A stretch of 62,009 bases of DNA from Nitrospirota bacterium. GTDB lineage: Bacteria > Nitrospirota > Thermodesulfovibrionia > Thermodesulfovibrionales > Dissulfurispiraceae. The notes beneath the pieces are model-generated. The model was given only the letters and a program-made list of their open reading frames with translations, was not told the DNA's origin and searched no databases. The stretch's first letter is position 1. Each line of letters begins with the position of its first letter. Positions 49,090 to 52,762 of the stretch are shown here, piece after piece. The stretch is taken from contig JBFMCP010000018.1 of assembly GCA_040754455.1 (NCBI GenBank), forward strand, positions 1 to 62,009. Reading direction: 5' to 3'. The position numbers were made by a program, and so were the translations under genes.

Positions 49090-49623
49090 CTACTCAGACA
49101 CAAGCTGCTTTGAGATGAACTTATACGTGCTTGAGAGTGCATCGTCAGGCAAGACTTTATCGGTCTCCACCGTTAATTCAGGACTGAGCGGCTCTTCATA
49201 CGGCACCTGTACGCCCGGTACCGGCCACCCGGCCTTCCCCTTCTGGTAAATATCTTTCGGCGCACCATGGGCATCCTTGCGGGAGCGCTCTCTCTCGGTA
49301 CATACGGCGAGAGCGCACTTCAGATAGATTTCCTTGAAGCGGGGGATCGTGCTCCGCGCGAGTTCACGCCACTTCCTCAAATTTCCCGTTGCATCGATGA
49401 TGACATGGTGCCCCTGCTCCGAAAGGATCTTGGCGGTATAAACGATAGCACGGTACACCACATCCCGCTCCGCTTCCGAATACGTAGGTTCAGGGGTAAC
49501 GATCCTTCTCAGTTCATCCATGCGGAGGATGACGAAATCGGGGAAGCGATGCTTGATGCCTTCAGCAATGGTGCTCTTACCGCTTCCTGGTAGTCCGGTT
49601 ATCCATATCACGAGACCGTTCAT
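49090..49623 (-). CDS. Adenylyl-sulfate kinase-like P-loop kinase
   Basis: IWITGLPGSGKST, YSEAER, VPGVQVPYEEP. Confidence 0.85.
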   Translation of the reverse strand: MNGLVIWITGLPGSGKSTIAEGIKHRFPDFVILRMDELRRIVTPEPTYSEAERDVVYRAIVYTAKILSEQGHHVIIDATGNLRKWRELARSTIPRFKEIYLKCALAVCTERERSRKDAHGAPKDIYQKGKAGWPVPGVQVPYEEPLSPELTVETDKVLPDDALSSTYKFISKQLVSE

Positions 49624-49746
49624 GGATAAAGTATACCTCAAAAACAGCCATCGGCATTCGGTTGTCAGCTAGCAGCCTTCAGAGGCACGGTATATCATTT
49701 CTTATTCTGTATGCTGAGGGCTGAACACCGACGGCTAATTACCGTC

Positions 49747-50541
49747 TTATTGTGTTTTGGGACTATATTGGCGCTTGAGCCAGCGGCTGAGGCCGTCGAG
49801 GCCGGGGAAAAGCACCCGTTCGGTAATATTCGCCTGGTCGAGCTTGTCGCGGATCTCCCACTTCAGCTCCGCAGGAATAATGATTTTGCGCCACAGTTCT
49901 GGGTAGTCCTTCATCCAGTCATCAAGCACATCCTTGGAGGTGGACATGACCGAAAAGAGGGCGAACTGGTTCACGATCCGGTCATCCATCGAAGGTGGCT
50001 CGATGAAGAGGACAAAATCGTTCCTGCAGAGATTGGACAGCTCCTCCAAGGACTTAACCGCCTCGGCAAGCATATCGACGGTAAAGACGTTCGCTCCCTC
50101 CTGATCGAGCTGAAACCTGAGCCGCTCGGGGAGCAGACGGTGGGCGTGGACATAATTGACGGCCCAGATAACACCGTCGATATCGAATTTCTCTATATTC
50201 GCGGTCGCAAAATGCATAGCAACAAGAGGGGAGTAGGTCCAGTCGAGCAATCGTGAGGGGAGGCCATAGTGCTGCGCGACAGAGAGCCAGTGCCATACCG
50301 AGTCATGCTGCACCACATTCCGCAATGCATATTTCCTGAAGTTCCTCAAAAGGTGGCGCTCGAGATCTTCGAACTTACCCCCCAGCCTGATCAGAGTCGT
50401 CTGGAGCGGATATTGGGCATCCGAGAGTCCTCTGAAGGCGTAGCGAGAACGGAAGCGTCCCAGTTCAGGGTTCCAGGAATCTTCGTAGAGCTGCTCCTGG
50501 AGCTCGTGCCAGCTGCTGATTCGTATAATGTTTGTAGTCAT
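49747..50541 (-). CDS. FRG domain protein
   Basis: YAFRG, AQHYGLPSRLLDWTYSPLVAMHFA, RIVNQFALF, ITERVLFPGLDG. Confidence 0.93.
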   Translation of the reverse strand: MTTNIIRISSWHELQEQLYEDSWNPELGRFRSRYAFRGLSDAQYPLQTTLIRLGGKFEDLERHLLRNFRKYALRNVVQHDSVWHWLSVAQHYGLPSRLLDWTYSPLVAMHFATANIEKFDIDGVIWAVNYVHAHRLLPERLRFQLDQEGANVFTVDMLAEAVKSLEELSNLCRNDFVLFIEPPSMDDRIVNQFALFSVMSTSKDVLDDWMKDYPELWRKIIIPAELKWEIRDKLDQANITERVLFPGLDGLSRWLKRQYSPKTQ

Positions 50542-50752
50542 CGCAGAGCAAAATCCTACAGAGTGGATGAGCTATTGTACCACGGCGGGAAGGAAAAAAA
50601 AGAGCAGATCATAAGAAGTGAAGCTGCTGCAATCAAAACGCGAGTTCCCCTGCCATTCTCCGCTTCAGAAATATACAGACCCGCTATTCAGTCAATTATA
50701 TCACAAAAAAACGGCCCTTCTATTTTGGGCATTGATCTTTGAGCCCTGCCAC

Positions 50753-50780
50753 TTGACACGCTTTTTGGAGCTGATATTAT
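50753..50780 (+). promoter_or_regulatory. Sigma70-type promoter of the peptide/radical SAM operon
   Basis: TTGACA-N16-TATTAT with extended TG, about 70 nt upstream of the peptide ATG. Confidence 0.6.
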
Positions 50781-50849
50781 ATAGTCAAAACCTATGAATA
50801 ACCGATTATTTATAGGAATGTAACTACAGGAGAAGGGAGGTGAGAGCGG

Positions 50850-50972
50850 ATGAAAAAGGCGTTGAGCACCAAAGCCCTTGCAAAGGAGGCATCTTTCTGG
50901 GCCGGTCTCAAGAAAGCGGCGAAGGAGCATCCCGGTAAGGTATGCCACAAGTGAAAGGGTTGAAAGAGCTGA
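50850..50972 (+). CDS. Putative selenocysteine-containing RiPP precursor, MKKALSTKALAKEASFWAGLKKAAKEHPGKVCHK-U-KG-U-KS*
   Basis: GGGAGGTGA RBS; Cys32 followed by in-frame TGA at 50952, 50961 and 50970 (exact 3-codon period); SECIS-like hairpin immediately downstream; radical SAM/SPASM gene next. Confidence 0.8.
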
Positions 50973-50991
50973 TGTTGCCGGTCAGGCAACA
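50973..50991 (+). promoter_or_regulatory. Putative bacterial SECIS element
   Basis: TGTTGCC-GGTCA-GGCAACA: 7-bp stem with a G-starting loop, 25 and 16 nt after the first two UGAs. Confidence 0.7.
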
Positions 50992-51005
50992 AATTAAAGG
51001 CAAAA

Positions 51006-51049
51006 GGCAGATACGTTATCGTAATGGTACGTATCTGCCGTATTTTTTT
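51006..51049 (+). terminator. Intercistronic hairpin / leaky terminator between precursor and maturase
   Basis: GGCAGATACGT...ACGTATCTGCC followed by GTATTTTTTT. Confidence 0.75.
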
Positions 51050-51081
51050 ACGGAAAGAATATACGGAGACCGGTAAATCCC

Positions 51082-52128
51082 ATGTCCACAACCAATGCTT
51101 TTGATTTTTTCGTCCAGTGGCATCTTACGGAGCAATGCAATCTCGGGTGTACCCACTGCTATCAGACCGGCATCAGGCACCAAGAGCTTTCATTGCCCGA
51201 GATAGTGGAGACGCTCGCTGAAATAGAGGAGATGCTGGGTGACTGGAAAGAGTCCTATGCCATCGATCTTTCACCGAGCATTAATGTCACCGGCGGAGAG
51301 CCCTTCCTGCGCAGCGACTTTTTCGATATTCTCAAAGCCATGGGCGCGCGGGGGTTTGCGCTCTATGTCCTTACGAACGGCACTCTCATTGATGATCAGA
51401 AGGCGAAAGCGCTCTCTGATCTTGGCGTAAAAGGTGTCCAGGTGAGCATCGAGGGTCCCGAGGCGATCCATGAGTCGATCCGGGGAAGAGGAAGCTTTAC
51501 CGCCTCGCTGAAAGGAATTGCCCGTCTGCTTGATGCAGGGCTGAAGGTGACCCTGAACACTACGCTCTCGTCGGTGAATGCCGCGCATTTTATGGAACTG
51601 ATCGACCTCTCCTTACGCCTGGGGGTCCACCGCCTCGGTTTTTCGCGACTCGTTCCTTCGGGAAGAGGAGAGGCCATGCTCGACACCATGCTCTCTACCG
51701 AAACGGTGAGAGGACTTTATAAGCGGATTTTCTCTCAGGATACCGGTGGCCTGGAGATCGTCACCGGCGATCCCGTTGCAGCGCAACTCACGGCTCAAGA
51801 GCAGGAGGGCAGCCACAGTTCAACTCCTTCGGGAGGATGTGCAGCAGGCATATCCGGCATCACGATCCTCCCCGATGGCACACTCATCCCGTGCAGGAGG
51901 CTTCCAGTTCCTCTCGGGAATATCAAAAAAGACTCCCTGCGCGAGATATGGGCGACTTCAGAAGTTTTGGAGGCGCTGAGGGACAGGTCGCGCTATAAGG
52001 GGAAGTGCGGCGCCTGCTCCCGCTGGGCGCAGTGCAGGGGATGCAGGGCAATCGCCTATGCCTGTTCAAAGGCGAAGGGAAGCGAAGATCTGCTCGCCGA
52101 AGACCCGCAGTGCTTTATTGGCAATTAG
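51082..52128 (+). CDS. Radical SAM/SPASM domain peptide maturase
   Basis: QWHLTEQCNLGCTHC (CxxxCxxC), TGGEP, TNG; SPASM GCAAG...PC...CGAC..WAQCRGC...DPQC. Confidence 0.93.
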   Translation: MSTTNAFDFFVQWHLTEQCNLGCTHCYQTGIRHQELSLPEIVETLAEIEEMLGDWKESYAIDLSPSINVTGGEPFLRSDFFDILKAMGARGFALYVLTNGTLIDDQKAKALSDLGVKGVQVSIEGPEAIHESIRGRGSFTASLKGIARLLDAGLKVTLNTTLSSVNAAHFMELIDLSLRLGVHRLGFSRLVPSGRGEAMLDTMLSTETVRGLYKRIFSQDTGGLEIVTGDPVAAQLTAQEQEGSHSSTPSGGCAAGISGITILPDGTLIPCRRLPVPLGNIKKDSLREIWATSEVLEALRDRSRYKGKCGACSRWAQCRGCRAIAYACSKAKGSEDLLAEDPQCFIGN

Positions 52129-52234
52129 AAAAGCAATGAGGAGCCGCTACTGTACGACTGCTTTCCCTCCTGATATACTTTTTCTAATCATTTGATCATT
52201 TCAGAGTACAAGCCAATAGAGGGAGGGAATGTTT

Positions 52235-52762
52235 ATGTCCAAATGGATGATTGATCCTGATCATTCGGTAGCGGCTTTTGCAATACGGCATATGATGATC
52301 GCGTTTGTGCGTGGTCAATTTAATAAAATTACCGGCACGATCCAGTTCGACCCCGAGGACATTACGCGCTCCTCTGTGGAGATGGAGATCGACGTCGCGA
52401 GCCTCACGAGCGGGATTAAAAAGCGTGACGAGCACTTATTGAGCGCCGATTTCTTCGAGGTGGAAAAGTACCCGAAAATTACCTTCAAAAGTATGGGCAT
52501 CGAAAAGACCGGTACGAACAGCGGCAAAGTGACCGGCGACCTGACCATTCACGGTGTCACGCGATCCGTTACCCTTGAGGTGAGCTTTTTCGGGCCGGTG
52601 AAGAGCCCCTTCGGTGAAACGAGCATGGGGTTCAGCGCAGCAACATCGCTGAACCGGGAGGGCTTCGGCATCATGTGGAACGAGCCCATGGAAAAGGGCG
52701 GGCTCATGATCGGCAGGGATGTGGAGATCACCGTCGACATAGAGGCCGATCTCGCTGAGTAG
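52235..52762 (+). CDS. YceI-family polyisoprenoid-binding protein
   Basis: WMIDPDHS...VRGQF...RDEHLLSADFF...GDLTIHGVT. Confidence 0.93.
   Translation: MSKWMIDPDHSVAAFAIRHMMIAFVRGQFNKITGTIQFDPEDITRSSVEMEIDVASLTSGIKKRDEHLLSADFFEVEKYPKITFKSMGIEKTGTNSGKVTGDLTIHGVTRSVTLEVSFFGPVKSPFGETSMGFSAATSLNREGFGIMWNEPMEKGGLMIGRDVEITVDIEADLAE

Follow-up and report, generated by a model that had tools for sequence, protein, structure and literature searches.

A predicted post-stop SECIS hairpin for two selenocysteine codons of a short Nitrospirota peptide gene

Can a single hairpin placed beyond a stop codon cause two UGA codons to be read as selenocysteine (Sec) while a third UGA, at its very foot, ends the same reading frame? 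The question is raised by a short gene of a Nitrospirota bacterium (Thermodesulfovibrionales; Dissulfurispiraceae; GenBank assembly GCA_040754455.1) that lies in the window analysed here, a stretch of 62,009 nucleotides (nt) comprising positions 1 to 62,009 of contig JBFMCP010000018.1. The frame that opens with ATG at 50850 contains, by direct reading of the sequence, TGA at 50952-50954 (UGA1), 50961-50963 (UGA2) and 50970-50972 (UGA3), and the next base begins a predicted selenocysteine insertion sequence (SECIS) hairpin (50973..50991, plus strand). We favour, with a probability of about 0.82, a reading in which this one hairpin serves UGA1 and UGA2 as the two Sec codons of a 40-residue peptide and UGA3 terminates. 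UGA would then carry two meanings within 21 nt.

The peptide gene, its UGA codons and the hairpin

The predicted peptide gene (50850..50972, plus strand) comprises 40 codons and a stop. Translated with TGA as U (Sec), its product is MKKALSTKALAKEASFWAGLKKAAKEHPGKVCHK-U-KG-U-KS, a precursor-type peptide of 40 residues with the C-terminus C-H-K-Sec-K-G-Sec-K-S, in which UGA1 (50952..50954, plus strand) is predicted to encode Sec35 and UGA2 (50961..50963, plus strand) Sec38. Automatic gene calling gives only an open reading frame (ORF) of 34 amino acids (aa) ending at Lys34, and the peptide is overlooked by gene callers because they end the ORF at codon 34. A protein database search with the 40-aa read-through form matched only the window's own 34-aa product, and no model for the peptide was present in NCBIfam (June 2026) or Pfam, the 40-aa and 34-aa forms both matching 0 NCBIfam families at E values up to 1. 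A full-text literature search found no description of the peptide family among the papers that it covered. Positions 50945-50996 are identical in contigs of four public runs from four studies, one of which may come from the source's own campaign, and these contigs vary elsewhere within the 361 bases compared, one variant being a synonymous change in codon 2. The identity of this part in four public runs indicates that the three TGAs are not an assembly artefact.

Evidence for the status of each UGA came from related loci found by way of the enzyme gene downstream (see below). The alignment holds 72 of 74 sequences, the window's own included; the two left out (L063 and L068) both read U-KA-U-KS-TAA and have the usual hairpin. 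UGA1 is TGA in 72 of the 72 aligned loci and UGA2 in 71, the remaining locus (L111) having TGC (Cys), and this Sec/Cys exchange is a classic mark of a Sec site. Both AAG and AAA occur as the Lys codon behind each UGA. The last residue is Ser in 54 of 72 loci (AGC 39, AGT 11, TCC 2, TCG 1, TCT 1), and its movement between the AGY and TCN codon families suggests that the sequence past the UGAs is coding and not a non-coding element. The tail is U-K-S-stop in 54 loci, carries one additional residue in 16 and takes other forms in two. At the terminal position TAA occurs 37 times, TGA 24 times and TAG 11 times, and this variation argues that UGA3 (50970..50972, plus strand) is a true stop. An apparent translation ‘CCRSGN’ beyond UGA3 is equally common after TAA and TAG stops, which suggests that what is conserved there is RNA (a translated hairpin) and not a coding sequence. 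Comparison among the loci thus shows, at the level of predicted translation, that UGA1 and UGA2 are translated and that UGA3 is the stop.

Two of the aligned loci differ in other ways. In L111 (1034-1097), which has Cys at the second site, the loop reads TTGGATA, and in L103 (1060-1123) two additional residues stand ahead of the TGA stop. The source genome contains a second match to the pattern UGA-N6-UGA (C11:68550), which was set aside as an intergenic chance match.

The hairpin consists of a 5' arm TGTTGCC (50973-50979), a loop GGTCA (50980-50984; GGUCA in the RNA) and a 3' arm GGCAACA (50985-50991), which form a stem of 7 bp lying wholly 3' of the stop codon. A preliminary description of the locus had set out this stem and loop directly after the third TGA, with the loop 25, 16 and 7 nt from the three UGAs, and both statements were confirmed when the sequence was read again. 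The minimum free energy (MFE) of the 19-nt hairpin is -10.1 kcal/mol, and a 121-nt region containing it and the next hairpin gave z = -4.43, with 0 of 200 shuffles folding as well. The same description had proposed that stem covariation across homologs be examined. Over the 72 aligned loci pairing holds in 97.7% of 397 cells, and five of the six stem pairs show changes on both sides (35 cells in all, from G-C to A-U, from U-A to C-G and from C-G to U-A or A-U), so that the hairpin proved to be conserved. None of 500 shuffles matched the observed values, a control that is too generous since the aligned sequences share kinship, and slid registers of the alignment all pair at 54% or less. These slid registers, together with the number of independent pair types, uphold the case for covariation despite the kinship of the sequences. 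The second base of the loop, G at 50981, is present in 72 of 72 loci and the U that follows it (50982) in 69 of 72. A loop G that is fixed while the stem covaries suggests that the loop is probably recognised by a protein. By sequence comparison, then, the hairpin is shown to be under selection as a structure with a fixed loop G.

In the consensus bacterial SECIS model of Zhang and Gladyshev, as summarised in PMC13188914, a stem of 4-16 bp carries a loop of 3-9 nt, the first or second loop base is G, mostly with G or U behind it, the loop lies 16-37 nt past the UGA and the MFE does not exceed -7.5 kcal/mol. The hairpin agrees with this model in its 5-nt loop, 7-bp stem, loop G and MFE of -10.1 kcal/mol, in its compensatory changes and in the Sec machinery of its host. 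UGA1 (25 nt) and UGA2 (16 nt) fall within the spacing of the model and UGA3 (7 nt) falls outside it. The preliminary description had placed the first two UGAs within SECIS range and had them decoded as Sec, a claim that the published spacing model and codon conservation across the 72 loci support. Its view that UGA3 is too near to the hairpin, and hence a stop, is borne out by the 7-nt distance and by the variation among TAA, TGA and TAG at that position, and comparison makes its third proposal, a single hairpin in the 3' untranslated region (UTR) for two Sec codons, the most likely arrangement.

When the U of each UGA is counted as position 1, the loop G stands at 30 from UGA1, at 21 from UGA2 and at 12 from UGA3. 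Across the alignment it lies at 30-32 from UGA1 and at 21-23 from UGA2 in 62 of 72 loci each, and at 10-13 from the stop in 66 of 72; for TGA stops it lies at 12-13 in 23 of 24, the exception being L107. In structural work on SelB the conserved loop G is set some 20 nt past the UGA, and the bridge from the A site to the loop needs about 13 nt, with variation absorbed by a hinge in SelB (PMC4605307). Of the E. coli fdhF loop, G23 and U24 are the conserved bases, G23 touches SelB, and the gap is 11 nt (PMC8659212). A relation between stop-codon choice and hairpin distance was also considered, and TAA or TAG is the stop in all five loci that have the loop G 19 nt away from it. This signal was discounted, the loci being few and mostly related and the chance expectation about 0.13.

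Decoding of the three UGA codons

The source genome has the means to decode UGA as Sec. SelB (376 bits) and SelA (626 bits) are present, as is a tRNA-Sec with anticodon UCA, and two selD genes score above cut-off (C21:48405-49331, minus strand; C37:23899-24813, plus strand), each with one in-frame TGA. The loops of the hairpins downstream of these two selD genes differ, one being UUC and the other GUC. The alpha subunit of formate dehydrogenase (FdhA) also has one in-frame TGA. TGA ends 626 of the 1852 long frames of this genome, and since it commonly terminates long frames the genome is not recoded. SelB was likewise above cut-off in all five of the distant peptide-bearing genomes checked (three Dehalococcoidia, one Geobacter and one Syntrophorhabdus). 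As a discriminator among the relatives SelB had no value, 40 of 41 genomes having it.

A scan of the source genome for hairpins with GGUY loops after in-frame TGAs gave 36 candidates, mostly wrong-frame noise, of which two resembled real selenoproteins. These two candidate genes (C36:17399-17995, minus strand; C9:34654-35073, plus strand) each have a GGUC-loop hairpin past the in-frame TGA; one is thioredoxin-like with the motif U-A-G-C and the other is a lipoprotein-like ORF ending in ...MEC-U and 11 further residues. Measured by eye, the loop G lies at position 29 in the thioredoxin-like UxxC candidate and at 26 in the lipoprotein, and the GU-loop hairpins of FdhA and SelD2 have it at 23 and 21. 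The range found for other UGAs of this genome therefore brackets UGA2 of the peptide (21) and nearly reaches UGA1 (30). A further ORF, similar to PstS-type phosphate-binding proteins (C10:11310-11924, minus strand), reads ...ITN-TGA-KQVGG at an in-frame TGA where we would presume Trp to be expected; a pseudogene, faulty sequencing and recoding at this site are all conceivable.

In the mechanism that we propose, a complex of SelB, GTP and Sec-tRNA(Sec) would dock on the hairpin at 50973-50991 as this reaches the mRNA entrance of the ribosome. With UGA1 in the A site the stem would begin at position 22, and Sec would be delivered. Three codons on, with UGA2 in the A site, the stem would have its foot at position 13, at the mouth of the channel, and Sec could be delivered either through the same tether or by a fresh complex of SelB, GTP and Sec-tRNA(Sec). 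The loop G, at 30 from UGA1 and 21 from UGA2, would be within the reach of SelB in both cases. Once UGA3 occupied the A site this foot would be at position 4, and the stem, inside the mRNA channel, would be melted; SelB would then have no SECIS to bind, and release factor 2 would terminate translation. Binding by SelB, the use of one hairpin for both UGAs and the melting of the stem at UGA3 are steps that we infer, as is the enzyme-substrate relation discussed below.

Besides the generosity of the shuffle control, several observations weigh against the reading of one post-stop SECIS for two Sec codons. The decoding of two UGAs by one bacterial SECIS is without direct precedent; that both UGAs of a UxxU motif share one SECIS downstream has been published only as a proposal (PMC13582414). 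The 16 nt of UGA2 are the extreme lower limit of the published range, and UGA1 lies 7 nt past the E. coli optimum given by the 11-nt gap and G23/U24 (PMC8659212). A scan of 50700-51150 against Rfam at E values up to 10 returned chance-level matches only and no SECIS family. In one aligned locus (L107, 1044-1107) the tail is U-KT-U-ISCRSGN-TGA and the ORF encloses the hairpin. The enzyme gene has no adjacent peptide in 12 of 85 related loci, and among the public runs searched no RNA run bearing the locus was listed. The source genome, finally, has a second tRNA-Sec-like tRNA with the anticodon GCA, so that Cys is possible at the UGAs of the peptide.

This last point leads to the most serious rival, which we regard as improbable: that recoding depends on the SECIS and SelB as proposed, and that Cys is inserted at one or both UGAs, always or at low selenium, by a GCA-anticodon tRNA of the tRNA-ReC type. 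The tRNA in question (C21:54199-54289, minus strand; 8200-8290 of L126) is 91-95 nt long with an 8-bp acceptor stem and a long extra arm, scores 58.1 bits on the Rfam tRNA-Sec model against a gathering score of 47, resembles tRNA-ReC/selC* and lies about 5 kb from one of the selD genes. Such tRNAs are reported, in work cited in PMC13582414, to insert Cys at SECIS-dependent UGAs; according to the same paper they are over-represented where a genome has UXXU motifs, and tRNAs with either anticodon recode UGA when a SECIS is present. The Cys codon at the second site of L111 is also in keeping with this explanation. Among the relatives, however, a second tRNA-Sec-like match of at least 55 bits was found in 2 of 11 peptide-bearing genomes and in 6 of 30 others (counts from a noisy output in which any anticodon was accepted), and this lack of association with a tRNA-ReC-like tRNA suggests that the peptide family is independent of it. 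TGA is moreover kept over TGC in 143 of 144 cells, which argues that Sec itself is selected.

It is less probable still that the gene ends at UGA1, giving a product of 34 aa to Lys34, and that the sequence downstream is a non-coding RNA element such as a stability or attenuation hairpin. The 34-aa ORF is what automatic calling gives, and a hairpin and a terminator-like structure do follow it. This explanation, however, leaves TGA-N6-TGA-N6-stop in frame across 72 loci without reason; it does not account for the switch of Ser between AGY and TCN, the three alternating stops or the single TGC; and the fixed loop G on a covarying stem points to recognition by a protein. Just as slight is the chance that the hairpin serves UGA2 only and that UGA1 is decoded by another signal (a weak GGUU/AGCU fold around UGA2) or by SelB carry-over: at 25 nt UGA1 exceeds the E. 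coli optimum for the distance to the loop, and RNAfold does predict a 4-bp helix between the UGAs, but 25 nt is well within 16-37 nt, the candidate UxxC selenoprotein of the source genome has its loop G at 29, the small helix has its loop merely 7 nt past UGA1 in coding-constrained sequence, and UGAs only 9 nt apart leave no room for a second hairpin between them.

The radical SAM enzyme and the distribution of the peptide

Downstream of the hairpin lies a gene (51082..52128, plus strand) for an enzyme of 348 aa of the radical S-adenosylmethionine (SAM)/SPASM type, which matches the Pfam families Radical_SAM (PF04055, 84.6 bits) and SPASM (PF13186, 44.4 bits) and has the cysteine motif C19-x3-C23-x2-C26 (CxxxCxxC) in its radical SAM core. 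It reaches no NCBIfam equivalog cut-off, its scores against those cut-offs being 187/500 bits for AhbD, 169/400 for ACGX, 157/400 for GeoRSP, 138.1/350 for SbtM and 133/265 for MftC. Among solved structures, SkfB and PqqE are nearest to it in sequence. If SbtM, PqqE, MftC and the SPASM enzymes that form thioethers are taken as a guide, it is most likely the maturase of the peptide, modifying the Cys/Sec-rich tail C-H-K-U-K-G-U-K-S. A different paralogue of about 32% identity is present in nearly all relatives and is probably a housekeeping enzyme of the AhbD/NirJ type.

The relatives of the source were searched with the enzyme in a set of 41 genomes (the source, G000, and 40 relatives), and 11 orthologous loci with 55-63% identity were found. 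The small ORF lies upstream in eight of these, one has a decayed remnant and two are without it. A scan of a collection of genome contigs added 80 loci, 77 of them with enough upstream sequence to judge, and the peptide was found in 66 of these 77. After removal of three duplicates the peptide adjoins the enzyme gene in 73 of 85 distinct related loci. The record titles of peptide loci name Nitrospirota/Thermodesulfovibrionales, Desulfobulbaceae, Geobacter, Syntrophobacterales, Syntrophorhabdus, ‘delta proteobacterium’ and Dehalococcoidia, and on these titles the family spans at least three phyla. Six loci from Dehalococcoidia have a divergent leader and the tail C-L-[SA]-U-K-S-U-K-[NG]-K-stop. 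The enzyme clade is patchy among the 41 genomes, with an ortholog in 11 relatives besides the window's own, and on this predicted distribution it is a clade that travels with the peptide.

Three genomes have an enzyme gene that lacks an intact adjoining peptide gene, and in two of them an intact cassette of peptide, hairpin and terminator is present elsewhere. In the decayed copy (L015, the same locus as L077, at about 200-300) TAA stands at the position of UGA1, the hairpin is lost and there is no ATG; the same genome keeps an intact, unlinked cassette of peptide, SECIS and terminator on another contig. A second relative also has its sole intact copy of the peptide unlinked from the enzyme (the unlinked copies are L128 and L129). 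In the relative G038, which has the enzyme ortholog and no upstream peptide, a tRNA-Sec gene lies about 1.2 kb downstream on the same contig (C56:11834-11927; L135). Three further loci (L021, L022 and L023) hold enzyme paralogues of about 40% identity preceded by an ORF for a membrane protein with a tail rich in Gly, Cys and Ser (CSGC repeats), which is probably a different substrate family.

Upstream of the peptide gene a Shine-Dalgarno sequence, GGAGGTGA (50836..50843, plus strand), was recognised by reading 6 nt ahead of the ATG, and GGAGGTGA-type motifs also lie 5' of the peptide ORF in the related loci inspected. A promoter-like site (50753..50780, plus strand) has TTGACA and TATTAT separated by 16 nt, with TG ahead of the -10 hexamer and 11 of 12 consensus matches; two such sites were found in the region scanned where 1.2 are expected, so that this is to be read as a mere consensus match. 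Between the peptide gene and the enzyme gene the RNA fold predicts a terminator-like hairpin followed by a T run (51006..51049, plus strand, the hairpin itself at 51006-51039), and the enzyme gene starts 33 nt after the T run. A consensus terminator scan of the region found 0 sites, the fold being the basis of this prediction. Hairpins of the GGCAGATA type occur 3' of the SECIS in many related loci, and the terminator-like hairpin may act as an attenuator.

A YceI-like gene (52229..52762, plus strand; Pfam YceI, 175.9 bits) lies downstream of the enzyme gene, and its membership of the cassette is uncertain. Within the flanking sequence covered, 17 of 91 related loci from several lineages have a YceI homologue next to the enzyme gene; in 16 it follows that gene and in one it precedes the peptide gene, and it could be an accessory gene. 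Pfam matches in the neighbourhood of the locus within the window included no transporter, protease or PqqD-like gene. On the opposite strand upstream, an FRG-domain protein (49747-50541, minus strand) and a protein similar to adenylylsulfate (APS) kinase (49090-49641, minus strand) are encoded. Neither was found by tblastn in any of the 91 related loci, which cover only 1.2-1.5 kb upstream of the enzyme gene, so that coverage of these genes may be partial.

Relation to known systems and significance

The hairpin resembles the bacterial SECIS of the fdhF type in its short G+C-rich stem, in its small loop of GG followed by U, in the spacing of 16-37 nt and in the presence of SelA, SelB, SelD and tRNA-Sec. 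It differs in lying wholly behind the stop codon, in having no bulged U and in apparently serving two UGAs 9 nt apart, while a third UGA that abuts its foot terminates. A post-stop position is known from the UXX-star and KCU-star proteins (NF041114, NF041211, NF033934; PMC13188914), in which Sec stands 1-3 residues from the C-terminus, so that the SECIS can only be in the 3' UTR. The tail described here, U-x-x-stop, is of this kind; the peptide nevertheless matches none of the hidden Markov models of those families, and it is distinguished by its length of 40 aa, its second Sec and its radical SAM partner. Paired UGAs two codons apart with one predicted downstream SECIS have been described in UxxU selenoproteins (Prx-like proteins, the metal-binding family NF041115, FmdB and Group 4 [NiFeSe] hydrogenases; PMC13188914, PMC13582414), and the possibility of a single SECIS has been raised for the Group 4 hydrogenases (PMC13582414). 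In those proteins the SECIS is located inside a long ORF, and there is no third UGA as terminator at the foot of the hairpin. The preliminary description had therefore overstated the novelty of the arrangement, since UXX-star/KCU-star tails, UxxU motifs and the proposal of a single SECIS had already been published.

As a peptide with an enzyme partner the system is close in plan to SbtA/SbtM (TIGR04081/TIGR04082, ‘selenobacteriocin’), a ribosomally synthesised, post-translationally modified peptide (RiPP) system of the thio(seleno)oxazole type, with which it shares a small precursor with at least two Sec residues, an adjoining radical SAM/SPASM enzyme and occurrence in anaerobes. The peptide, however, has no match to TIGR04081 and its core is UK[GS]UKS and not the GGUG/SGUG given for SbtA in PMC9204691. 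The enzyme likewise scores 138.1 bits where the SbtM cut-off is 350, and since its match covers only positions 199-515 of the 516 in the model, it lacks the N-terminal 200 or so residues of SbtM. A SPASM enzyme that acts on the C-terminal residues of a short precursor is also a feature of PqqA/PqqE, MftA/MftC and the sactipeptide maturase SkfB. Unlike those systems, the present one showed no PqqD or RiPP recognition element (RRE)-type partner or domain, its enzyme reached no curated cut-off, and Sec is predicted in the core.

What appears to be new is the peptide/enzyme family, the placing of one 3'-UTR hairpin behind a UxxUxx-stop tail and the UGA terminator that abuts the hairpin in a third of the loci; a post-stop SECIS and paired Sec residues two positions apart are not new as such. 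A more far-reaching proposal, which as a joint claim we think rather unlikely, would have the tail C-x2-Sec-x2-Sec give rise to a selenium-bearing, peptide-derived molecule (a redox cofactor or metal ligand comparable to pyrroloquinoline quinone (PQQ) or mycofactocin, and not a bacteriocin), the synthesis of which would be gated by selenium through the two UGAs and the one hairpin, with the ladder of UGAs acting as a ruler for SelB and with a switch between Sec and Cys in genomes that have the GCA tRNA.

Three identical codons 9 nt apart ahead of one hairpin, two of them marked by evolution as sense and one as stop, amount to a natural test of recoding. If the reading of a single SECIS for both Sec codons is correct, this 9-nt ladder of UGAs would be a natural ruler of the reach of SelB, the loop G lying at 12 for the stop and at 21 and 30 for Sec. 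Both the SECIS distance rule and the service of two UGAs by one SECIS become testable with a reporter of about 60 nt. For annotation it follows that translation should be continued past the UGA of short ORFs that stop at this codon ahead of radical SAM genes. The predicted peptide and its enzyme appear to be a second genetically encoded selenopeptide family with a radical SAM partner, after SbtA/SbtM.

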